Of a DNA stretch of 64,000 nt, positions 3,045 to 49,600 are shown one piece after another. Every line of letters begins with the position of its first letter. The first letter of the stretch is position 1. Source of the DNA: Escherichia coli (GTDB lineage: Bacteria; Pseudomonadota; Gammaproteobacteria; Enterobacterales; Enterobacteriaceae); the NCBI RefSeq assembly GCF_016026235.1, contig NZ_CP065613.1, one strand, 5' to 3'. Position numbers and translations under genes: made by a program. Under the pieces are notes generated by a model that saw only the letters and a program-made list of their open reading frames with translations, did no database searches and had not been told where the DNA came from.

Positions 3045-3590
3045 TTATTTTAAGGAAAGCAACTGCTCTACGGTCATGTTTTTAATTGCGCCCCGGTTTA
3101 CAAGAGTCCAGCCCTGTTTTTCCAGATAAAACCGGAAAGTCTCCAGGGTACAGACCAGTGCGCCATCAGGAACGGTTTCGGTGAATTCGACATTGCCGAA
3201 TTTGTCGAAGTGAACAACCAGAGTGCGACCATCACCCGGAATCATCTTGTCAGCAGGTGGGGTGTTATTCTGGCGCAGTTCGGCCTCCATGCGGTCGAAC
3301 TCAGCAATGTAGGCTTCCTTGAATGTGGCGGCTTTTTTGCCCGTGAAGCCCATCACCAGGAAAACGAAGCCGTTTTTGGTGATTTGGTAGGCGTTATAAG
3401 AATTGCCGCGGTGTTCGAATTTAACCCGCGAAAAGTTGCTGGTTAAAAATAGTTCAGAACATTCGAGGGATTCTATTTTTTGAACAACATGGTGATGCTG
3501 CTTGCCAAAAAACTCAGCAATCGAAATAGAAGTAGTGACGGCGCGACCATTTTCGATGGTTACGTCAGGGTGAGAAAGGGTAGTAGCCAT
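3045..3590 (-). CDS. Rha-family phage regulatory protein
   Basis: Rha-like N-terminal domain from MATTLSHPDVTIENGRAVTTSISIAEFFGK; ATG at 3590. The 98-codon in-frame extension up to 3884 is low-complexity and contains a terminator, so not taken as coding. Confidence 0.55.
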   Translation of the reverse strand: MATTLSHPDVTIENGRAVTTSISIAEFFGKQHHHVVQKIESLECSELFLTSNFSRVKFEHRGNSYNAYQITKNGFVFLVMGFTGKKAATFKEAYIAEFDRMEAELRQNNTPPADKMIPGDGRTLVVHFDKFGNVEFTETVPDGALVCTLETFRFYLEKQGWTLVNRGAIKNMTVEQLLSLK

Positions 3591-3754
3591 AATGACATCC
3601 TCAAGTGATAAGTTAATTAACTCACCAGCAGAGGTGCTAATCTCATGGGTGGTGAGACGCACAGGGTTAGCACTACCGGTCACTCGAGAACCCGGCCAGC
3701 CTTGCGGCTGCCCCGCACGCCTCACCATAATTTGAATGTGGCTGTGCATTACGC

Positions 3755-3781
3755 ATAAAAAAACCGCTTCAGCGCGGTTAT
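3755..3781 (-). terminator. Rho-independent terminator (minus strand)
   Basis: Minus-strand hairpin AACCGC-GCTGAA-GCGGTT followed by TTTTTTT. Confidence 0.4.
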
Positions 3782-3905
3782 GCGCTCGAGTAACTTTCGG
3801 GGTGCTAATCCCGGCACCCGTTTTATGAGGTGCAGGTGCACTATAATTCCACCCGTTCTGGTTTTCAATAGCTACATTCAACATTTTCTCTTTCCTTTCA
3901 TCACC

Positions 3906-4924: not shown

Positions 4925-5229
4925 GTTGACCCCATTTCCCCTTAACGCCGGGTGGCGGAACGTTTTATCTACTGCGCTTTGTATCAATCAACAACTGCCG
5001 TCATGTTCGTATGCCTCAGGCTGGCTACTTAGCCCTGTTCAGTGACTGGATAACTCGAGGTATTGTCCTGCCGTTCTCTGGTGGGGCGTTGTTTGGATAT
5101 GCTTATTAAACACAATTTGTTTTCTTATGTCAACACGTAATGTGTTTTATGGTGGGTGTCATATGATGATGCTACAAAAAAGCCCGCTGATAGCGGGCTG
5201 ATTGGCATATTACTGTGATAGCAAGATCA

Positions 5230-5649
5230 TTATTCCGGTGGGGGATTATCTTTAATCCTGCCTCTCAAATATTTTTCTACATACTCATCGATTTCTTTTA
5301 GCCGGACTTCAAATAGCTCAATCATTCGTTGTTGTTCTGAGCCCGGTAGCTGGTTAAACAACTCAAGAAGTTTTCGTTGGGATTCATTTAACCACAATTC
5401 AGAAGATTCCTGTTCTCCAAAGAGGAGCTCAGGAGGAGATATGCCAAGTGCCTTTCCCAATACGACAGCGTCATGTACTCCAACATTTCTGCTGCCCGCC
5501 TCATAGTTACCTATACGCGATTGCGTCCATCCGCAGATTTCAGCAAGTTTTCCTTGAGATAAACCAAGCTTCTGCCTGCGCTCTTTAAGACGCATTGCAA
5601 TTTTGTCATTGAGCCTACTAGCGGCAATTTTTTCGTTTTCTTTTTCCAT
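5230..5649 (-). CDS. HTH (XRE-family) prophage repressor, cI/RacR-like; no S24 peptidase domain
   Basis: HTH motif LGLSQGKLAEICGWTQSRIGNYE; divergent from cro-like gene; AAGGA Shine-Dalgarno. Confidence 0.7.
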   Translation of the reverse strand: MEKENEKIAASRLNDKIAMRLKERRQKLGLSQGKLAEICGWTQSRIGNYEAGSRNVGVHDAVVLGKALGISPPELLFGEQESSELWLNESQRKLLELFNQLPGSEQQRMIELFEVRLKEIDEYVEKYLRGRIKDNPPPE

Positions 5650-12298: not shown

Positions 12299-12479
12299 AA
12301 GGAAACAAAACAGAAACAGCAATTGCCGTTACCTGTTGTTACCATGGCAAGTAAACGTATCTCAGGCGAGCGCATTGCGCCGTTCTGACGCAGATAAACT
12401 AGCCTGGATAGATGGTGCTGGCAATAAAAAATAGCGTTTTCTTATCGGTGTCGGTAAGATTGCTGCGGGTGCTTGAGGC

Positions 12480-12635
12480 TGTCTGCCTCGGGCATGTCAC
12501 TGTAAGGCAGACAGAGAAAAGCCCCAGTTAACATTACGCGTCCTGCAAGACGCTTAACATTAATCTGAGGCCCAATCTATGTCTCACAAATGTAGGTTAG
12601 CCTCTTACGTGCCGAAAGGCAAGGAGAAGCAGGCT
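12480..12635. promoter_or_regulatory. hok mRNA leader with stem-loops; expected location of sok antisense RNA
   Basis: Inverted repeat GTCTGCCT...AGGCAGAC (12481-12512); 9-bp hairpin GGCGGGAGA-GTAA-TCTCCCGCC downstream at 12800-12822. Confidence 0.35.
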
Positions 12636-12791
12636 ATGAAGCAGCAAAAGGCGATGTTAATCGCCCTGATCGTCATCTGTTTAACCGTCATTGTGACGGC
12701 ACTGGTAACGAGGAAAGACCTCTGCGAGGTACGAATCCGAACCGGCCAGACGGAGGTCGCTGTCTTCGTAGACTACGAATCTAGAGAGTAA
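12579..12791 (+). CDS. mok: mok-like in-frame extended reading frame overlapping hok
   Basis: 70-aa ORF ending at the hok stop, as MokC extends HokC in E. coli. Confidence 0.4.
   Translation: MSHKCRLASYVPKGKEKQAMKQQKAMLIALIVICLTVIVTALVTRKDLCEVRIRTGQTEVAVFVDYESRE
12636..12791 (+). CDS. hok: Hok/Gef-family type I toxin
   Basis: MKQQKAMLIALIVICLTVIVTALVTRKDLCEVRIRTGQTEVAVF is near-identical in pattern to HokD/RelF; AAGGAG Shine-Dalgarno. Confidence 0.8.
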   Translation: MKQQKAMLIALIVICLTVIVTALVTRKDLCEVRIRTGQTEVAVFVDYESRE

Positions 12792-14794: not shown

Positions 14795-14883
14795 CTCAAT
14801 CTGTTATCCGGGGCTATATTCCTCACGCGCCAGCAAAATCTGGCGTCGGGATTGGCGTCCCGGATGTTTACGGAGCGATATGA

Positions 14884-14904
14884 GACGCGCCCGCGTCTTT
14901 TTTC
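14884..14904 (+). terminator. Hairpin plus T-run downstream of Q (possible tR'-like terminator)
   Basis: GACGCG-CCC-GCGTC followed by TTTTTT. Confidence 0.4.
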
Positions 14905-15066
14905 ATATCGTTTGCACAGTCTCATTCGCGATTTATGGCGGGCTGTGTGGGGGAGCCGAAAGGCTCGCCGGTTTCCGTACCCGGTTACGCCAACCCTGCA
15001 CAGTTCGCCACCAGTTCGATTGGCGTCGTCGGTGGCGATAATTTCCAAATGTACGGAGTTATCGTT

Positions 15067-15832: not shown

Positions 15833-15909
15833 GGCCCTTTAGCTCAGTTGGTCAGAGCGAGCGACTCATAATCGCCAGGTCGCTGGTTCAAGTCCAGCAA
15901 GGGCCACCA
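15833..15909 (+). tRNA. tRNA with CAU anticodon (Met or Ile2, ileZ-like)
   Basis: Manual cloverleaf: acceptor GGCCCTT/AAGGGCC, anticodon loop CTCATAA, 3' CCA. Confidence 0.8.
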
Positions 15910-15910
15910 A

Positions 15911-15987
15911 CCACCACTAGCTCATCCGGATAGAGCATCAACCTTCTAAGTTGACGGTGCGAGGTTCGAGTCCTCGGTGGTGGGCCA
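15911..15987 (+). tRNA. tRNA-Arg (UCU)
   Basis: Acceptor CCACCAC/GTGGTGG, anticodon loop CTTCTAA, T-loop TTCGAGT, 3' CCA. Confidence 0.75.
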
Positions 15988-15989
15988 GC

Positions 15990-16065
<76 letters not shown>

Positions 16066-16068
16066 TAT

Positions 16069-16143
<75 letters not shown>

Positions 16144-16435: not shown

Positions 16436-16651
16436 ATGAAATCCATGGACAAAATTTCAACGGGCATTGCCTACGGCACCTCCGCCGGCAGTGCCGGCTA
16501 CTGGTTTTTGCAGTGGTTGGATCAGGTCAGTCCATCACAGTGGGCTGCGATTGGTGTGCTGGGAAGTCTGCTTCTGGGGCTTCTGACTTATCTGACGAAT
16601 CTGTATTTCAAAATAAGAGAAGACAAGCGTAAGGCTGCACGGGGAGAGTAA
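16436..16651 (+). CDS. Pinholin (phage 21 S21-like class II holin)
   Basis: [29 protein letters not shown]...[13 protein letters not shown] matches recalled S21; GGAGGTGA Shine-Dalgarno. Confidence 0.8.
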
Positions 16652-16654
16652 ATA

Positions 16655-17284
16655 ATGAAGCATGAAGAAATGAATCAGCGATTCAATCACCTGGAAAATG
16701 AAATCACTGAGCTTAATAAAAAATTGTCGGCGTTGGTGAGTTCTGAAGATGAAAACAAACGCCGCGATGAGCATTATGCGGCGATTTACGATTACTGCCA
16801 CAAAGTCGCTCACGAGACTTTTATGAAGTTTTTGCAGGAAAAGTTTTTACCGGCCGCATTGTCAGAAAAAGAGGCGGCTTACCTGCGGCCTGAGTACGTC
16901 ATTACGGTTAACAGTGCCGGAGAGGAAGAGCATAAAAGTGATTTTATTGCGTCTGCACCGGATAAAGACCAGGAACCCCGTCGGCCTTTCAGGGTTTCCT
17001 GTGAAGAGGGTGAGTTCGTCGTTTATGAGAACGGAAAACCTGTCCGGGCATCGCATCATCACTGCCTGAAAATTATTAATCTCGCTATCAGATGCCTGAA
17101 AGACGAAAACACCAGAGTTATGAAACGCATTGGCCGTTGCATGGGGTATTTGCAGGTGGCGGCAGAGATTGAAGCACTTGCCAGTGGTGCAGACATGGAT
17201 GCTGCGGTGCGGGAGGCTCTTCTTCGTGATTTCAATACTCCCCCTTTAAGAAAGAGCCTGATGACTGGATCCAGCCGGGGCTGA
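16655..17284 (+). CDS. hypothetical 209-aa protein inserted between holin and endolysin
   Basis: ORF starts 4 bp after holin stop; N-terminal coiled-coil-like segment; no family recognised. Confidence 0.55.
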   Translation: MKHEEMNQRFNHLENEITELNKKLSALVSSEDENKRRDEHYAAIYDYCHKVAHETFMKFLQEKFLPAALSEKEAAYLRPEYVITVNSAGEEEHKSDFIASAPDKDQEPRRPFRVSCEEGEFVVYENGKPVRASHHHCLKIINLAIRCLKDENTRVMKRIGRCMGYLQVAAEIEALASGADMDAAVREALLRDFNTPPLRKSLMTGSSRG

Positions 17285-17349: not shown

Positions 17350-17883
17350 ATGAGCGCAAAAATCAAATACGGCCTGTCGGCTGCTGTTCTGGCGCTGATT
17401 GCCGCAGGCGCGTCTGCTCCCCAGATACTTGACCAGTTTCTGAACGAAAAAGAGGGTAATCACACAACGGCATACCGTGATGGTTCTGGCATATGGACCA
17501 TCTGTCGTGGTGCCACAATGGTGGATGGTAAGCCTGTCATACCGGGAATGAAGCTGTCGAAGGAAAAATGTGACCAGGTTAACGCTATTGAACGTGATAA
17601 GGCGCTGGCATGGGTGGAGCGCAATATTAAAGTACCTCTGACCGAACCACAAAAAGCGGGTATAGCGTCATTTTGCCCCTATAACATTGGCCCCGGTAAG
17701 TGTTTCCCGTCGACGTTTTATAAGCGGCTGAATGCCGGTGATCGTAAGGGCGCATGCGAGGCGATTCGCTGGTGGATAAAAGATGTTGGGCGCGATTGCC
17801 GCATACGTTCAAATAACTGCTATGGACAGGTTATTCGTCGTGACCAGGAAAGCGCATTAGCCTGTTGGGGGATAGATCAATGA
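17350..17883 (+). CDS. SAR endolysin (lysozyme, R21-like)
   Basis: N-terminal signal-anchor-release segment [16 protein letters not shown] followed by lysozyme-like domain. Confidence 0.8.
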
Positions 17884-18347
17884 GCAGAGTCACCGCGATT
17901 ATCTCCGCTCTGGTTATCTGCATCATCGTCTGCCTGTCATGGGCTGTTAATCATTACCGTGATAACGCCATTACCTACAAAGAGCAGCGCGACAAAAACG
18001 CAAGAGAACTGAAGCTGGCGAACGCAACCATTACTGACATGCAGCAGCGCCAGCGTTCTGTTGATGCACTCGATGCTAAATACACGAAGGAGTTAGCTGA
18101 TGCGAAAGCTGAAAATGATGCTCTTCGGCGCAAGCTTGATAATGGTGGTCGGGTGCTCGTCAAAGGAAAATGCCCTGTGCCAGCCTCAGCCAAAACCTCC
18201 AGCGCCTCCGGCATGGGCAATGATGCCACCGTCGAACTCTCTTCAGTTGCTGGACGAAACGTTCTCGGTATCCGGGACGGAATTATCCGCGACCAAACAG
18301 CACTGAGAACGCTTCAGGAATACATCAATACGCAATGCCTGAATTAA
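17880..18347 (+). CDS. Rz i-spanin
   Basis: ATGA overlap with endolysin stop; N-terminal transmembrane segment then coiled-coil periplasmic domain. Confidence 0.7.
18100..18306 (+). CDS. Rz1 o-spanin lipoprotein embedded in Rz (+1 frame)
   Basis: Lipobox VVGCSS; Pro-rich mature region; entirely within Rz. Confidence 0.65.
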
Positions 18348-18388
18348 TCCCTCTGTATCAAAAACGAACTCAATTTGTTGGATAGTGA

Positions 18389-18700
18389 ATGAAAATTTAT
18401 ATTGCCGGGCCAATGACGGGATATGAGAACTTTAATCGTGACGCCTTTAATAAAGAGGCAGATCGTTTGTCACGACATGGTCACTCTGTCTTGAATCCAG
18501 CCACTTTGCCTAATGGTCTGACACAACGTGAATACATGGATATTTGCTTTGCAATGCTTCGTTGTGCGGATGCTATTTTGATGCTTCCTGGCTGGAAAGC
18601 GTCTGCTGGAGCAACTGCTGAGTATCATTACGCATACAAGATGGAGATGCCGGTATTCACTACGCTGAATTACCCGCCAGCTTGTTCCTCTGCAGTATAA
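18389..18700 (+). CDS. DUF4406 / nucleoside 2-deoxyribosyltransferase-like protein
   Basis: MKIYIAGPMTGYENFNRDAF N-terminus typical of the family. Confidence 0.5.
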   Translation: MKIYIAGPMTGYENFNRDAFNKEADRLSRHGHSVLNPATLPNGLTQREYMDICFAMLRCADAILMLPGWKASAGATAEYHYAYKMEMPVFTTLNYPPACSSAV

Positions 18701-19039
18701 AAATCTCTTTGTTTCTCGTGTGCGATCGTGGTCGCTCGCTAAATTCCGCGCTGCATCGTCGCCGTATTTCCGCATTAACTATGACCGTAGCCCGACGGGG
18801 AACTCCTTCTGCGCGAGTGTGCGGGAATAATCAAAAACGATGCACACCGGGTTTTTACCGCGTTTATGGTTCGCGGGTTTGTCCCTCATGCTCGCCAGTC
18901 CTGTGCGGGGGTGGAAGAAACAGGACACTTACACTGATTCTTGTGGGTACGATGCTATTCCTTTCTGGATTATCCCGATGTCATTCATGCAGGGCGCTGT
19001 ATCAGACGTTCGTCATGGCTGTCAGGCTGACGGGTCCTC

Positions 19040-19150
19040 CCGGTGGGGTGGCCTGCCACGGGGCGGGAGCGGCGCGGAAAAAGGCTAGTTTTTGAAATTT
19101 CATTCGTCATCACCACTACTGTAATGTATTGATATTACAGTGGTTTTATT
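19040..19150. other. Putative cos/packaging site region upstream of terminase
   Basis: GC-rich GGGGCGGGAGCGGCGCGG followed by AT-rich tract with palindrome CTGTAAT...ATTACAG; ORF-poor 550 bp. Confidence 0.25.
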
Positions 19151-19246
19151 TTTGTGCTGTCGGTTTTGATTGTTTTTTGTTCATCACTAACACCGTTTGC
19201 CTAAAGTTGTTCGCAAGATGCATGTTTAAAACATTCTGGAGCGGGT

Positions 19247-19740
19247 ATGGATCGAGAGTTAAAAAATCTGACGCTGAATATCAGTCAACTGGCGGCACTG
19301 TCAGGTGTACATCGCCAGACTGCTGCGGCAAGGCTGCAAAATCTACCCGTTGCAGGGGGCATGAAAGCAACCTCAAGCTTTATCGGGTGGTTGATATTGT
19401 GTCGGCATTTCTGGCATTACCACCGCCGGTTGCAGAAGGCGAAATGGACGCGCATGAGCGCAAAGCCTGGTATCAGTCTGAACGTGAGCGTCTTAAGTTC
19501 GAACAGGAAACGGCACAACTCATTCCGGCCAGTGATGTCAGACGGGAGTTTGCCATCTGGGCAAAAGCGGTCGTGCAGGTGCTGGAGACATTACCGGATA
19601 TTCTTGAACGTGACTGCGGTCTGCAGCCTGCCGCTGTGAGCCGTGTTCAGTCCATTATTGATGATCTGCGCGATCAGATAGCCCTGCGGGTGACTGAAGC
19701 AGGTGCGGATGATGAGGAGGAATTACAGCAGGAGGAGTAA
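19247..19740 (+). pseudogene. Terminase small subunit (Nu1-like), frameshifted at G-run 19355-19359
   Basis: N-terminal HTH MDRELKNLTLNISQLAALSGVHRQT in one frame; C-terminal part in the -1 frame; one extra G restores a Nu1-like protein. Confidence 0.6.
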
Positions 19741-21820
19741 TGCTGAATCAGGAAACCGCAAAGGCAGCACGAACCGATTCAGGTTATATCCTTCGCGCAC
19801 CAAGACGAATGCGGGTTGCTGATGCCGTTGCTCAGTATATGCGGGTGCCCATGGGGCAGGGAACTCAGTCCCGTGGGATCCGCTGGTGGCACCGTATGTT
19901 ATTGAGCCGATGAACTGCCTGGCCTCGCGTGAATACGACGCAGTGATATTTGTTGGCCCGGCACGAACCGGCAAGACTATCGGCCTGATTGACGGCTGGG
20001 TGATTTACAACGTGATTTGCGATCCTGCTGATATGCTGATCATTCAGATGACGGAGGAAAAAGCCCGCGAACACTCCAAAAAACGACTCGCCAGAACGTT
20101 TCGCGTCAGCCCGGAAGTGGTCAGTCGCCTGAGTCCGAACAAAAATGACAACAACGTTTATGACAGAACATTCCTTGCTGGCAACTACCTGAAAATCGGC
20201 TGGCCGTCAGTCAATATCATGTCCTCATCAGATTATAAATGCGTCGCGCTGACGGATTATGACCGTTTTCCGGAAGATATTGATGGTGAGGGGGATGCTT
20301 TCTCTCTTGCCTCAAAACGTACCACAACATTTATGTCCAGTGGTATGACGCTGGTGGAGAGTTCCCCCGGCAGGGATGTGAAGGATGTGAAATGGCGACG
20401 GACTTCACCGCATGAGGCTCCACCAACCACGGGGATACTGTCGCTCTATAACCGTGGCGATCGCCGTCGCTGGTACTGGCCCTGTCCACACTGTGGTGAG
20501 TATTTTCAGCCCTGCGGCGATGTGGTTGCTGGTTTCCGTGATATTGCCGATCCCGTGCTGGCAAGTGAGGCGGCTTATATTCAGTGTCCTTCCTGTTCAG
20601 GACGGATTATGCCTGAACAAAAACGTGAGCTGAACGGACGTGGGGTCTGGTTGCGGGATGGTGAATCCATCAATGCGGATGGCAGTCGTTATGGTGATCC
20701 CAGGCGTTCACGTATTGCGTCATTCTGGATGGAGGGTCCGGCAGCTGCTTACCAGACACTCTCGCAACTCGTTTACAAACTGCTTACTGCAGAACAGGAA
20801 TACGAGACAACCGGAAGTGAAGAAACACTCAGGGCGGTTATCAACACCGACTGGGGATTACCTTATCTTCCCCGCGCCAGCATGGAGCAACGAAAAAGTG
20901 AACTGCTTGAGCAGCGGGCAGAGCCTGTTCCTCCCCGCTGCGTGCCGGATGGTGTTAATTTCCTGGCGGCGACAGTGGATGTGCAGGCGGGACGTCATCG
21001 CCGTTTTGTGGTTCAGGTAACGGGTTATGGTTGCCGTGGCGAACGCTGGATTATTGATCGTTACAACATCACGCAGTCATTGCGTTGTGACAACAACGGA
21101 GAAAGCCTGCGAATTGATCCTGCTGGTTATCCTGAGGACTGGGATGTCCTGCTGACGGATGTTTTTCATAAAAGCTGGCCGTTGGCCTCCGATCCTTCTC
21201 AACAAATGCGACTGATGGCAATGGCGGTGGACTCCGGCGGTGAAGACGGGGTCACTGATAATGCCTATAAATTCTGGCGTCGTTGCCGTCGTGATGGCCT
21301 TGGTAAACGTATTTACCTGTTTAAGGGCGACAGCATCCGGCGCGCAAAACTGATCACCCGTACATTCCCTGATAACACCGGACGAACGGGCCGACGGGCG
21401 CAGGCCGCAGGTGATGTGCCGCTCTGGCTTCTTCAGACGGATGCCCTGAAAGACCGGGTGAATAACGCGTTATGGCGTGACTCGCCAGGTCCCGGCTATG
21501 TGCATTTCCCTGACTGGCTGGGGAGCTGGTTTTACGACGAACTGACGTATGAAGAGCGGAGCAGTGACGGGAAATGGAGTAAGCCGGGTCGAGGTGCCAA
21601 CGAAGCTTTTGACCTGATGGTGTATGCCGAGGCTCTGGTCATTCTGCATGGTTACGAGAAAATTCAGTGGCCGGATGCGCCGGAATGGGCATGCAGGGAA
21701 ACCTGGCTGGAGCGTGTCAGGGACGATGCCGGACTGTCAGCCTCGCCGGAGCCGGTATCCGTGTCCGTTAAAAAAAGAAACGAAAAAAAGTGGTGCCTGA
21801 TGAAGAAAACCCATGGGTGA
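19740..21820 (+). pseudogene. Terminase large subunit (gpA-like), frameshifted at G-run 19859-19861
   Basis: Conserved N-terminal segment (RAPRRMRVADAVAQYMRVP) starts at ATG 19740 in one frame; main body 19886..21820 (Walker A GPARTGKT) in another; one extra G joins them. Confidence 0.65.
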
Positions 21821-22049
21821 CTTCCGGAGGATGGTTGTGAACCAGAATGATATTGAAGCCATGATCCATCGTTATATCAATGCGGAAATGGCAGTGCTGG
21901 ACGGAAAGTCCATTACTTTTAATGGTCAGCAGATGACCATGGAAAACTTATCCGAGATCCGACAGGGGCGGCAGGAGTGGGAACGTCGCCTTGCGACTCT
22001 GGCTGCGCGGCGACGGGGGACGCCGGGCTATAAACTGGCGAGGTTCTGA
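21813..22049 (+). CDS. Head-tail joining protein W-like
   Basis: Size and C-terminus RRRGTPGYKLARF resemble lambda gpW; start uncertain. Confidence 0.5.
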   Translation: MGDFRRMVVNQNDIEAMIHRYINAEMAVLDGKSITFNGQQMTMENLSEIRQGRQEWERRLATLAARRRGTPGYKLARF

Positions 22050-23553
22050 TGGCAATTCTTGATGATGTGATTGGTGTTTTTTCACCTGGCTGGAAAGCTG
22101 CGAGATTGCGCTCAAGGGCATTAATTCGTGCCTATGAGGCAGTGAAGCCTACTCGTACACATAAAGCCCGGCGGGAAAATCGTTCTGCCGACCAGCTCAG
22201 TAAGTACGGTGCAGTTTCCCTGCGGGAGCAGGCTCGTTTTCTGGACATCAATCATGATCTGGTAATCGGTGTTTTCGACAAACTTGAGGAACGGGTGATT
22301 GGTGCAAAAGGGATCGTTGTCGAACCCCAGCCATTACTGAAGAACGGTGATATAGCCACAGAGCTGGCAATGATTATCCGTCGCTTGTGGGTGGAATGGT
22401 CTGTCAGTCCGGATGTGACCGGGCAGTATACGCGCCCCATGCTCGAGCGTCTGCTGCTGCGTACCTGGTTACGTGATGGTGAAGTGTTTGCCCAGCTGGT
22501 TCGTGGTGCCGGCGGCGGGCTGGTGCGGACTGCTGGCGTGCCTTTCTGGATCGAGGCAATGGAGCCGGATTTTGTGCCCATGCTCAGTGATGAATCTGTG
22601 GGGTTGAATCAGGGTGTTTTTCTGGATGACTGGGGCAGACCGAAAAAATACCTGGTTTATAAAAATCATCCGACTACCGGGCGGCTGAGTGATACCAAAG
22701 AGATCGTTGCCGAAAATATGGTGCATCTGAAATTTACCCGTCGTCTGCATCAGACGCGTGGTACATCCATGTTGTCAGGTGTGCTGATGCGGATCAGTGC
22801 GCTTAAGGAATATGAAGATGCTGAGCTGACAGCGGCGCGTGTTGCTGCGGCTCTGGGGCTGTATATCCGTAAAGGAGATGGGCAGGATTATGAAGACGCC
22901 ACGATAAATAAAGATAATGACCGGGAACTGCATATCACCCCTGGCATTATTTATGACGATTTGCGCAAGGGGAAGATATTGGCATGGTCAAATCTGATCG
23001 GCCCAATCCTAACCTTGAAACTTTTCGTAACGGGCAGCTGCGTGCGGTGGCCGCAGGCAGTCGTATGAGTTTTTCCAGTGCGGCGCGCAATTACAACGGT
23101 ACCTACAGCGCTCAGCGACAGGAGCTGGTCGAGTCCACTGACGGGTATCTGATCCTGCAGGACTGCTTTATTGGTGCTGTAACCCGTCCCGTGTACCGGA
23201 CGTGGCTGAACATGGTGGTAGCAGCAGGTCTGCTGAAAATCCCGTCGGATGTGGATATGAAAACGTTGTGTAACGCAACATATTCCGGTCCGGTCATGCC
23301 GTGGATTGATCCGGTTAAGGAGGCTGAGGCCTGGAAAATCCAGATTCGCGGTGGAGCGGCGACAGAATCAGACTGGGTGCGAGCAGGTGGGCGTAATCCG
23401 GATGATGTCAAACGTCGGCGCAAGGCTGAAATTGATGAAAACCGCAAGCTGGGTCTGATATTTGATACCGATCCGGCCAGTGATAAAGGAGGCAGCAGTG
23501 TCGCAACGAAACGACAGGAGCCGCAGCACACCGACGGCCAGTCCGAAGAATAA
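22049..23553 (+). pseudogene. Portal protein, frameshifted at G-run 22969-22972
   Basis: Two overlapping ORFs (22049..23068, 22984..23553); one extra G makes a single reading frame of about 500 aa; position between W and protease. Confidence 0.6.
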
Positions 23554-46239: not shown

Positions 46240-46548
46240 TGAATAAATCCTTTAGTTATTTTATTTGCCTTTTATCCCCATTTCGGGGAGTGAAAACATC
46301 CTAAAGGAGAAGTTCAGTTAGCCGATAAATATCATTTGTTACGCCTTAAGTAAAACCTTAATCAAAAAATTCCTCTGAAATGATAATAAGTCTGGTGAAT
46401 GTATCGAAGATAATACATACAAAATAAAAATTATACTTTTAATTTTCTATACGTTATTCTGCGCGGGTTATATGCCTTTATTGTCACAGATTTTATTTTC
46501 TGTTGGGCCATTGCATTGCCACTGATTTTCCAACATATAAAAAGACAA

Positions 46549-46580
46549 GCCCGAACAGTCGTCTGGGCTTTTTTTTAGAA
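46549..46580. terminator. Bidirectional hairpin terminator between ydbK and ompN
   Basis: AAGCCC...GGGCTT hairpin flanked by A-run and T-run. Confidence 0.45.
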
Positions 46581-46604
46581 TTGGATAATCCTTATCCAGA
46601 GCAT

Positions 46605-49600
46605 TTAATCGGTGTTGCTTTTTTCCGCTTTTCCGGCCATTTGTGCCAGGAAGTCATAGCGTTTTTGCAAATCAGCTGCAGCATCTTTCCATAACTGTTC
46701 TGCCACTTCTGGCTGCTGAGAATTCAGACGACGGAAACGTTGCTCGTGAAGTAACGTTTCTTCCAGTGCTTCTGACGGCGGGCGTGAATCCAGCGCCAGC
46801 GGCAGTTTGCCTTCATCGGCACGACGCGGATCGAAGCGATATAGCGGCCAGAAGCCGGTAGCTGTGAGTTGGCGCATCTGGTCATGGCTGAGTGCCAGAT
46901 CGTAACCATGCTCTTCACACGGGCTATAAGCAATGATCAGCGATGGTCCCGGATACGCTTCCGCTTCCTGAATCGCTTTCACCGTCTGGTTCAGTTGCGC
47001 GCCGAGAGAAATCTGCGCCACATAAACATGACCGTACATCATCATACTGACGCCAAGATCTTTACGCGCTTTACGTTTGCCGTGCTCGCCAAATTTAGTT
47101 ACTGCACCCAGCGGTGTCGCTTTCGACGCCTGACCACCGGTGTTGGAATAGCATTGCGTATCCAGCACCAGAATGTTGACGTTTTCCGTCAAACTCAATA
47201 CATGATCCAGACCGCCAAAGCCGATATCGTAAGCCCAGCCGTCGCCACCAATCAGCCAGATTGATTTTTCTACCAGTGCATCTGCGTCACGCAGCAGTTC
47301 ATGTGCTTCGGCAACATCGTTGAGTTGCTGGCGTAAAGCTGCAACCTGTTCACGACGAACCTCTGGCGTGGCGTCTGATTTCAACGCAGTCAGTAATTCC
47401 GCCGGGATTTTATCGGCAAATTGATCCAGCAGACGCAGCACGCGGACACGGTGTTGATCGACCGTCAGGCGGAAACCAAGGCCAAATTCGGCATTATCTT
47501 CAAATAGAGAGTTCGCCCATGCCGGCCCACGACCGTTGGCATCGGTGGTATACGGTGTAGAGGGCAGGTTACCGCCATAAATTGAAGAACAGCCGGTGGC
47601 GTTAGCGATCAACATCCGGTCGCCATAGAGCTGAGTCAGCAATTTAATATACGGCGTCTCGCCACAACCGGAGCAAGCACCGGAATATTCAAACAGCGGT
47701 GTAATCAGCTGCGATGTACGAATATCAATACGTTCCAGTTTGCTACGGTCGATTTCTGGCAGGTTGAGGAAGAAATCGTAATTGATTTTCTCTTCTTCGA
47801 CATGTTCCAGGCGCGACATCATATTGATGGCTTTAATCTCTGGATTCTGACGGTCTTTCGCCGGGCAAACTTCGACGCACAGGTTACAACCGGTGCAATC
47901 TTCCGGAGCCACCTGCAAGACATATTTCTGCCCGCGCATATCACGCGATTTCACATCCAGCGAATGCAGGCTGGCAGGGGCGTTTTCCATCGCTTCAGGC
48001 GGTACCACTTTTGCGCGAATAGCTGAGTGTGGGCAAGCGGCGACGCAGTGGTTACATTGGGTACAGAGTTCCTCTTTCCAGATGGGGATCTCTTCGGCGA
48101 TATTGCGTTTTTCCCAGCGAGTGGTGCCCATCGGCCAGGTGCCGTCTGGCGGCAGCGCCGAAACGGGGAGGGCATCACCAAGCCCGGCGAGCATCGCAGC
48201 GGTTACGGTTTTCACGAAATCAGGGGCGGCATCGGAAACCACTGGCGGTCGATTGGCGCTGTGCGGATTTACCGGTTGCAACGGAACTTCTTCTACGGAT
48301 TCACGCGCCAGCGCCAGAGCCTGCCAGTTGCGTTCCACCAGATCCTGACCTTTGCTGCTGTAACTTTTGGCAATCGCACCCTGCAATTCTGCGAGGGCGC
48401 TATCGCCAGGCAGAATTTGTGTCAGATGGAAAAAAGCCATCTGCATGACGGTATTAATACGGGCCGCCAGGCCACATTCGCGGGCGATTTTCGCCGCGTT
48501 AATCACATAGAAGCGCGCTTTTTTCTGATTTAGCACGGCCTGAACTTCCTGCGGCAAGCGCGACCACACTTCATCTGCGCTGTACGGCGTGTTGAGCAGG
48601 AAAATGCCGCCAGGTTTTAAACGCTCAGCCATCTGATATTTATCGATAAACTGCAACTGGTGGCAGCCAACAAAATCAGCCTGGGAAATGAGATAAGCGG
48701 AACGAATCGGCTGTTCGCTCACGCGAAGGTGAGAAACCGTCAGGCCGCCCGCCTTTTTGGAGTCGTAAACAAAATAGCCCTGTGCGTACCACGGCGTGGA
48801 ATTACCGATAATCTTGATATTGTTTTTGGTCGCGGAAACGCTGCCATCACTACCAAGGCCATAAAACAAGGCTTCCAGTTTCGCCGAGTTTGGCAGGGTG
48901 TTTTCCGGCAACGGCAGTGACAGATTGGTCACATCATCGTAAATACCAACCGTAAAGCGCGCTTTCGGTTTAGCCGCGTTGAGCTCGGCAAATACCGCCA
49001 GTACACAGTCCGGGCCAAATTCTTTGGATGAAAGACCATAGCGCCCACCAATGATACGGGGCAGAGTTTCGCGCTCGCCATTATTAAAGGCTTCTGCCAG
49101 TGCGGTCATTACATCCAGATAGAGCGGTTCTGCCTGGGCACTGGGTTCTTTGGTTCTGTCCAGTACCGCCACGCTGCGTACGGATCCCGGCAGAGCTTGC
49201 AGCAAGTGTTTGGCGGAGAAGGGACGGTACAGGCGAACTTTCAGCACGCCAACTTTTTCGCCACGGGTTAGCAATTCATCAACCACTTCTTCACAGGTGC
49301 CAATGGCAGAGCCCATCAGGATAATCACCCGTTCCGCTTGCGGATGCCCGTAATATTCAAACGGCTGATACTGACGACCTGTCGCGGCAGAGAAATCATT
49401 CATCGCCTGTTCAACATGGTCATAGACCGCGTTGTACCATGGGTTGGTGGCTTCGCGAGACTGGAAATAAGTGTCAGGATTCGCGGACGTACCGCGGATC
49501 ACCGGATGTTCCGGGTTGAGTGCCCGGGCGCGATGAGCATCAATTTCGGCCTGCGGCATGAGATCAAGAATCGTGTCATCGGCCAGCGGGACAATTTTGT

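Follow-up and report, generated by a model that had tools for sequence, protein, structure and literature searches.

The cos site of phage lambda is built of successive sub-sites: cosQ, which has a role in the termination of packaging, the nicking site cosN, the spacer I2 and cosB, the last of these comprising R3, I1 (a site for the integration host factor, IHF), R2 and R1, a scheme owed to the Feiss and Catalano laboratories (PMC4856287). In the lambda model, cosN and cosQ serve the large terminase TerL and cosB serves the small terminase TerS, and gifsy-1 is counted among the phages with lambda-like cos sites (PMC4856287). Known cis-acting RNAs of lambdoid phages are represented by nut boxB, the HK022 put RNAs and, near the late promoter, C4/isrK, which are hairpin-based, belong to the sense strand of long phage transcripts and are conserved across mosaic genomes. 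The nucleoside 2-deoxyribosyltransferase (NDT) superfamily (NDT, DNPH1/Rcl, MilB, BcmB and BlsM; Pfam DUF4406, DUF1937 and Nuc_deoxyrib_tr) groups proteins of a flavodoxin/Rossmann-like fold, the solved members of which are 125-160 amino acids (aa) long. Here, we describe an interval of an Escherichia coli prophage (contig NZ_CP065613.1) that can be compared with each of these systems. The interval covers positions 18389-19246 of a stretch of 64,000 nucleotides (nt), hereafter termed the window, in whose positions all coordinates are given, and it belongs to the prophage late region at 16.4-22 kb. It very probably consists of three independent parts placed end to end in a lambdoid late operon, namely a DUF4406 gene, a structured RNA-like element and a cos site. 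Novelty, if any, is confined to the RNA-like element, the cos site and the DUF4406 gene being further ordinary examples of what is known already. The element is also the most valuable by-product of the analysis; it lay outside the earlier, sequence-only reading of this DNA and yet inside its coordinates.

The sequence-only reading had treated the roughly 550 bp between the DUF4406 gene and the small terminase gene terS as a single spacer containing a putative cos site. This holds for its right side, where cos is indeed found, but not for the left third, which is a separate conserved structured element. BLAST matches of the region to phages repeatedly start at position 18748 and stop at about 18925, and the element was matched in 439 phage records and is carried by 206 of the 276 loci that were compared. 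Its hosts include lambda, HK630, 933W-like and other Stx phages, Stx phages with HNH-associated terminases and the Salmonella phage ES18. The lambda copy lies at about 46868-47039, between bor and lambdap78 (the same place as in HK630), and the copy in the DLP12 prophage of strain K-12 lies between borD and ybcV, in a stretch for which RefSeq lists no RNA. Across phages with very different packaging modules, the orientation of the element is always that of the late operon. A weak, degenerate copy was noticed in Tritos immediately upstream of its cos (2063-2228 of that locus; 31.9 bits, E = 2.5e-8), and no copy was found within the 2.5 kb of cdtI that were examined. A scan of genome contigs with a 22-base core pattern retrieved 12 loci, mostly from Escherichia, in addition to Intestinirhabdus and probable contaminant contigs, so that at this stringency the element appears confined to enterobacterial lambdoid phages.

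The case for a fold was built on an alignment of 40 sequences, each less than 96% identical to those already kept, from which an RNAalifold consensus was obtained and slightly extended to seven helices with 37 pairs. In this set 96.9% of the cells were paired and 14 pairs carried changes on both sides, as compared to 5.4 ± 1.6 in shuffled alignments (none of 500 reached the observed value) and to 2-12 in slid controls. A covariance model made from the same alignment recovered 101 copies, and among the 73 distinct ones that were used, 24 of the 37 pairs changed on both sides versus 10.0 ± 1.9 after shuffling. Two helices, P1 and P2, are long-range and have two small hairpins inside them, an invariant single-stranded AUCAAAA is found between the 3' arms of P2 and P1, and in the terminal hairpin all seven pairs were changed on both sides in the 73-sequence set (Table 1). 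Cells with G.U pairs numbered 165 and those with A.C 15, an excess that points to a fold of the plus strand. In unpaired columns transversions were frequent and C>T changes were not in excess; in paired columns transitions predominated. Taken together, the G.U excess and these substitution patterns argue for selection on a single-stranded fold of the plus strand, most simply the late mRNA.

Several points weigh against this interpretation. The alignment of 73 sequences was fitted to the model by which it was obtained, and cell counts overstate the number of independent events because the sequences are related. Folding of the single sequence was no better than that of shuffles (z = -0.55; +0.92 for the other strand), and the structural argument is consequently drawn from comparative data in its entirety. 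Nor did the sequence offer a functional clue: a role as a sponge for CsrA was considered and rejected, since GGA motifs are not enriched (4.3 per sequence vs 3.5 in shuffles).

Unremarkable single-sequence folding would also suit an element that is conserved at the DNA level only, as a remnant of the bor promoter region and/or as a "boundary" copied by homologous recombination between lambdoid phages. A minus-strand promoter, presumably that of bor by its position, is annotated in HK630 inside the left edge of the element, where the lambda sequence is the same, and the breakpoints of homology coincide with the edges of the element. In PhiR46_1, moreover, two copies (3360-3542 and 5141-5326 of the locus) flank a block of three extra open reading frames (ORFs) between the DUF4406 gene and Nu1, suggesting that the element is a joint at which accessory genes (morons) are inserted or exchanged. 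We nevertheless hold conservation at the DNA level only to be distinctly unlikely. Recombination alone leaves unexplained the 14-24 compensatory pairs, which exceed both the shuffled and the slid controls, and it fails on the 11:1 ratio of G.U over A.C and on the opposition between transversion-rich unpaired columns and transition-dominated paired ones. Furthermore, the hexamers of the bor promoter are degenerate in phages that lack bor, including the prophage of the window, yet the element is kept.

The absence of a convincing ORF noted in the sequence-only reading is borne out: the stretch measures 546 bp (18701-19246) and holds no conserved frame. Two ORFs can be drawn mechanically in this region, one of 82 aa (18840-19088) and one of 137 aa (18682-19095). 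It might be argued that the former, or a small ORF of the minus strand, is a real gene, since plus-strand homologues are annotated as mEp460_059 (82 aa) and as a "putative late gene regulator" in Ayreon (95 aa), minus-strand ORFs of 59-61 aa are annotated in 569R4 and Lambda_4C10, and the N-terminus of the 82-aa ORF, MHTGFLPRLWFAGLSLMLA, looks hydrophobic. Such a gene is hardly credible. These annotations conflict with each other in strand and frame, and the 82-aa frame is broken by indels of 1-2 nt and by in-frame stops in 47 distinct relatives. Variable sites are distributed 22:17:13 over the three codon positions with no third-position excess, and half of the sequences have ATA in place of the ATG at 18840. 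PGAP predicts no coding sequence here in two E. coli genomes, and there is no Pfam match. The 82-aa ORF spans cosN and therefore would be cut in virion DNA. For the element itself, a coding reading was rejected on the 40-sequence set, in which all six frames fail to stay open.

We conclude that the element is most likely a folded segment of the late mRNA, its sense orientation within the Q-dependent late operon being assigned by position only. More tentatively, and with somewhat less than even confidence, we propose that it represents an undescribed class of structured cis-acting RNA with a specific role in late gene expression in lambdoid phages, lambda and DLP12 included. Like nut boxB, the put RNAs and C4/isrK, it is based on hairpins of the sense strand within a long phage transcript and is conserved across mosaic lambdoid genomes; it differs from them in its place at the lysis-packaging junction, in its sequence and in its architecture of seven helices over about 184 nt. 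Our preferred guess is a processing or stability site that uncouples the lysis mRNA from the morphogenesis (head) mRNA; alternatively, it may bind a host or phage factor through the invariant GGAAGAA of its hairpin loop. It would also serve as a sequence shared for recombination between modules. A search of Rfam 15 (4227 families) over 18300-19300 gave no match at E ≤ 1, a search of the whole window at the gathering thresholds gave none in the interval, and no intrinsic terminator was detected by consensus scan and inspection in the element or after the DUF4406 gene. A literature search for small RNAs or conserved elements at the lysis-terminase junction returned only the unrelated svsR, Pas, AsxR/AgvB near pR' and 24B_1, and a CRISPR interference study of gene essentiality in lambda is silent on the element. 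Should it prove to be a real RNA, lambda, among the best-studied genomes, would hold an unrecognized conserved RNA that existing genetics could test directly.

The right part of the 546 bp is supported as a lambda-type cos site by a base-for-base alignment with the cosQ-cosN-I2 of lambda (the lambda sub-sites being compared by global alignment), with which the record ends of relatives agree; the putative cos of the sequence-only reading is thereby upheld. The motif quoted there, GGGGCGGGAGCGGCGCGG, is found at 19060-19077 and the palindrome CTGTAAT (19119)...ATTACAG (19134) is present within an AT-rich segment. The description of the stretch as GC-rich was accurate for the cosQ-cosN core (19032-19077, 85%), but overall the enrichment is only moderate (56.5% over 18701-19077 vs 50.9% for the window), and the next 169 bp have a GC content of 35%. 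Order and spacing of the sub-sites are the same as in lambda. The cosQ heptamer is identical, cosN keeps the same ACGGGGCGG...CGCGG frame, the A/T-tract I2 is homologous (window GCTAGTTTTTGAAATTT, aligned with bp 18-50 of lambda, GCTATTTATGAAAATT), an IHF consensus is situated in an AT-rich region and a TerL gene of the gpA family follows. The distance from the start of cosQ to the predicted nick is 29 nt here and 30 nt in lambda, which places cosQ 1 nt closer to the nick, and that from the nick to the terS ATG is 185 nt vs 190. The end sequence itself differs: the predicted 12-nt 5' cohesive end, GGGCGGGAGCGG (19061-19072), is identical to GGGCGGCGACCT of lambda at 7 of 12 positions. Written side by side with a slash at the nick, lambda reads ...ACGGGTCCTTTCCGGTGATCCGACAGGTTACG / GGGCGGCGACCT CGCGGG and the window ...ACGGGTCCTCCCGGTGGGGTGGCCTGCCACG / GGGCGGGAGCGG CGCGG.

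The ends of database records were located by a distant BLAST search with 19000-19260 and then read from the sequences. The records of cdtI (AB285204) and Tritos (OV696610) both begin with GGGCGGGAGCGT, homologous to window position 19061, and the linear Tritos record ends with ...CCACG, homologous to 19060; the ends of lambda are in the same register. The three phages thus coincide at the predicted nick, in line with the comparison to related lambdoid cos sites that had been suggested as a check. Against this assignment, it has to be said that the experimental origin of the cdtI and Tritos record ends is unconfirmed from the literature, and that for this prophage cos is called only from its sequence and from the record termini of relatives. 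Record ends are, in addition, not uniformly precise, since in the linear record of mEp460_4F5 (LR595868.1) the cut falls 4 nt left of the nick in the lambda register and cosN reads GGGCGGGAGCGCGG, without the GCG found in the window, mEp460 and others. Faulty assembly of the cohesive ends is the probable cause of this deviation. The mEp460 and Ayreon records were opened arbitrarily at the terminase gene, as stated by the authors of Ayreon.

The same core is widespread. The cosQ-cosN pattern CACGGGGCGGGAGCGNCGCGGAAAAAGG was recovered from at least 120 contigs of IMG/VR. Base 12 of the overhang is T in 99 matches and G in 31; the window has G. Near-identical cosQ-cosN-I2 segments are found in the cdtI, Tritos, mEp460/Ayreon and Gifsy/Fels types, the single difference in the overhang being this base (G vs T at position 12). 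As side observations, direct cosQ-cosN copies, two or three per contig and spaced by about 2536 bp, were seen in the IMG/VR contigs L045, L020, L044, L048 and L052, and three in L082. In L045, a ClpP/S49-like protease ORF and a major-capsid-like ORF lie between the copies at 3641 and 6178, the second of which is followed by a DUF1441 terS; this pair may be a capsid-gene cassette bounded by cos or a satellite-like arrangement. In the window, the octamer TTCGTCAT is present at 19009-19016 and at 19103-19110 (-52 and +43 relative to cosN) and also in the cosB of lambda, at bp 66-73 from the left end, probably by chance.

To the right of I2, which is common to all of them, the sequences split into four cosB classes that track the type of TerS. 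Three of these classes precede a DUF1441 TerS, with slightly different N-terminal domains, and one precedes the unrelated TerS of cdtI. Such a correspondence is as expected if cosB is the TerS-specific part of the site. Phages mEp460, Ayreon, 569R4 and phi458 have the same cosB and DUF1441 TerS as the window, at 95-97% identity, whereas cdtI and Tritos have a different TerS and a different cosB. The cosB of the window is also unrelated to the R sites of lambda, in keeping with a DUF1441 TerS that is unlike Nu1. A perfect match to the IHF consensus lies in the middle of the palindrome and is one of only three in the 64 kb of the window, both strands considered. Out of the four classes, those of the window and of cdtI match the whole consensus perfectly. 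Three classes retain its TTGAT core, always at one and the same distance from cosN, and the fourth has TTGAA there. From its sequence, we regard it as a predicted IHF site and as the candidate equivalent of lambda I1. A 28-bp box just upstream of the terS start is kept in all three DUF1441 classes and is overlapped by another palindrome (19208-19233). It could be a TerS-binding (R-like) site or a translation-initiation region, both of which we infer from its conservation and position. A repeat search of cosB, however, did not reveal a clear three-copy repeat of the R type, one of the points against the cos assignment; besides short palindromes, TTCGTCAT occurring twice was the sole repeat, and TTGTTC/TCATCAC motifs are no more than candidates for TerS binding.

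An imperfect palindrome followed by a run of T could, in principle, form primarily an intrinsic terminator that, in lysogens, keeps the head genes free of read-through from morons such as the DUF4406 gene. In a consensus scan, the segment 19115-19154 was the sole terminator-like site of 18200-19400, with a 13-pair stem followed by TTTATTTTTG on the plus strand. This is a quite improbable primary role, however, as the stem has only 3 G-C pairs, shuffles give 1.5 ± 1.0 such sites by chance, and the centre of the hairpin is the perfect IHF consensus. The palindrome arms are specific to the cosB class of the window, and yet the TTGAT core remains at its offset from cosN in two classes without arms, with TTGAA in the third. 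Roles in termination and in packaging are, in any case, not mutually exclusive. By analogy with lambda, the gpA-type large terminase would nick cosN at positions 12 nt apart, leaving GGGCGGGAGCGG ends, while cosQ (GGGTCCT) would act in the termination of packaging, IHF would bend the cosB DNA at 19122-19134, and the DUF1441 TerS would bind class-specific sequences.

The large terminase matches the Pfam families GpA_ATPase (5.7e-70) and GpA_nuclease (6.2e-84). A near-identical, intact copy is present in E. coli NCCP 15734. Compared with lambda, its large terminase shows only 25% identity to gpA (E = 5e-19), and its small terminase resembles Nu1 to no detectable extent. The cosQ, cosN and I2 sub-sites are thus recognizable despite 25% identity of TerL and an unrelated TerS, which fits the lambda model for the division of labour between the sub-sites. 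The NCCP 15734 copy is 98.5% identical to that of the window, and its TerS homologue is annotated as an intact protein of 164 aa. By comparison, both terminase genes of the window have lost one nucleotide in a run of G, terS at about 19354 and terL at about 19852, and are split by the loss; a third 1-nt deletion is found in an A run at 21775. If real, the terS and terL frameshifts would mean that cos is a relic here and that the prophage is unable to package alone, a further argument against a functional site. The portal gene, too, is seemingly split, into overlapping ORFs at 22049-23068 and 22984-23553. Still, we consider it unlikely that cos is a non-functional relic of a defective prophage with broken terminase genes. 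All three lesions are single-base losses in G/A homopolymers, a typical signature of sequencing errors, which suggests errors rather than decay; the core of cos is intact and identical to the variant found in 31 viral contigs; and a related helper phage could use the site in trans. It is to be noted that cos sub-sites are annotated in none of the cdtI, Tritos, mEp460 or Ayreon-type records. Within a large group of temperate phages and prophages of E. coli, of the mEp460, Ayreon, cdtI, Tritos and Gifsy-like types, most database records were opened arbitrarily and some carry spurious ORFs across cos; for this group the present assignment predicts exactly where the genome should end.

The left part of the interval is occupied by the gene of a 103-aa protein starting with MKIYIAGPMTG, present downstream of Rz/Rz1 as the sequence-only reading had it. 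Its proposed DUF4406/NDT-like identity was corroborated by Pfam, PHROG and the combination of AlphaFold2 and Foldseek. The protein matches Pfam DUF4406 (PF14359) over positions 1-90 of a 91-position profile (E = 3.7e-34; 117.4 bits for a cut-off of 22) and PHROG 355, "nucleoside 2-deoxyribosyltransferase" (E = 2.8e-45), with sub-threshold matches to DUF1937 and to Nuc_deoxyrib_tr (20.7 vs a cut-off of 28.8). An AlphaFold2 model computed with 38 homologues as input reached a pLDDT of 90.9 and a pTM of 0.85. Apart from two low-ranked unrelated chains, the best 50 or so matches to this model in a Foldseek search of the PDB were either NDT, DNPH1 (Rcl), MilB, BcmB and BlsM proteins or uncharacterized structural-genomics proteins, with TM scores of about 0.7 and a probability of 1.0 (for example 2a0k, 6evs, 1t1j, 4fyk and 4jem). 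The predicted fold is thus the flavodoxin/Rossmann-like fold of the NDT superfamily, with which the protein shares a YI(A)GP motif at the N-terminus and, towards the C-terminus, the motif S-x-G-A-x-x-E with an invariant Glu; it differs from the solved members by its shorter length (103 aa) and by a sequence similarity that is marginal. Invariant positions in the homologues follow the pattern YI.GPM...N...NP...W..S.GA..E78 and include Y4-I5-x-G7-P8-M9, N36-P37 and W69-x-x-S72-x-G74-A75-x-x-E78. Within the last motif, Glu78, which is invariant across the 38 homologues, is the obvious candidate for the nucleophile of the NDT family. Two points limit this assignment: the equivalence of Glu78 to the nucleophile is putative at the residue level, and a profile search of the PDB produced marginal NDT matches only (E about 0.6). 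A PDB search with the single sequence gave no match.

The model places the DUF4406 protein within the NDT/DNPH1 N-glycosidase fold, as a minimal member, and from this membership we infer that it most likely binds a (deoxy)nucleoside or nucleotide, or cleaves its glycosidic bond, via Glu78. The gene is probably read within the late transcript. It is also annotated by PGAP in E. coli NCCP 15734, and Enterobacter prophages have homologues with 80% identity at the equivalent place, between the lysis genes and Nu1/gpA. Homologues with about 60% identity are located in the nin region of Salmonella prophages (loci L280-L283, 4001-4291), in the neighbourhood of replication genes (DnaT, lambda-P, IstB/DnaA-like or other), DUF977 and DUF4752. 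At least two different lambdoid slots are therefore taken by the family, which for this reason qualifies as a mobile accessory (moron-type) phage gene. A PADLOC search gave no defence-system match for the protein, and of the three papers found to mention DUF4406 by name none is functional. The protein is widespread as an accessory of phages, and roles in nucleotide-directed metabolism or in counter-defence are reasonable candidates.

Table 1. Coordinates of the features of the late region and of the sub-sites of the interval; roles of the noncoding features are predicted.
Feature	Position	Strand	Description
P21-type holin gene	16436-16651		late region
Lysozyme gene	17350-17883		late region
Rz gene	17880-18347		Rz1 ORF embedded (18100-18306)
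DUF4406 gene	18389-18700	+	103 aa, directly after Rz
Structured RNA-like element	18748-18931	+	about 184 nt, seven helices, noncoding
P1 helix	18753-18759 / 18837-18843	+	99% paired, UA/UG/CG series
P2 helix	18765-18775 / 18819-18829	+	97% paired, compensatory changes including lambda CCGGA/UCCGG
Terminal hairpin	18898-18926	+	7-bp covarying stem, 15-nt loop GCGGGGGUGGAAGAA, invariant GAAGAA core
cos site	19032 to about 19235		lambda-type
cosQ-like heptamer	19032-19038	+	GGGTCCT, identical in lambda, cdtI, Tritos and mEp460
cosN-like nicking region	19056-19077		15 of 22 bases identical to lambda cosN
I2-like spacer	19078-19110		A5 tract and T5 tract, AAAAAGGCTAGTTTTTGAAATTT...
Imperfect inverted repeat	19115-19125 / 19134-19144		arms ACTACTGTAAT / ATTACAGTGGT, 91% complementary, 8-nt spacer
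Perfect IHF consensus	19122-19134	-	minus strand WATCAANNNNTTR; plus-strand reading TAATGTATTGATA
Conserved box	19203-19230		AAAGTTGTTCGCAAGATGCATGTTTAAA, 28 bp just upstream of the terS start, kept in the three DUF1441 cosB classes
Small terminase gene (terS)	19247-19740	+	DUF1441 / PHROG 141 type
Large terminase gene (terL)	19740-21820	+	gpA-type, ATPase and nuclease domains

Some other features of the window were noted in passing. A 209-aa ORF (16655-17284) lies between the holin and lysozyme genes, an unusual placement for an extra gene within a lysis cassette; its single match was to PHROG 1085, of unknown function, and it had none in Pfam or PADLOC. Immediately upstream of the lysis cassette, four tRNA genes are found at 15833-16140. 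The prophage also contains a sok antitoxin RNA (hok/sok) at 12467-12641, and MicC, at 46464-46584, probably marks the flanking chromosome. Finally, two C4 antisense RNA/isrK pairs are present, at 3645-3833 on the minus strand and at 14814-15015 on the plus strand, one of them with a c4-a1b1 target match. Facing opposite directions about 11 kb apart, they suggest two late-regulatory modules, arising from two prophages or from an inversion.

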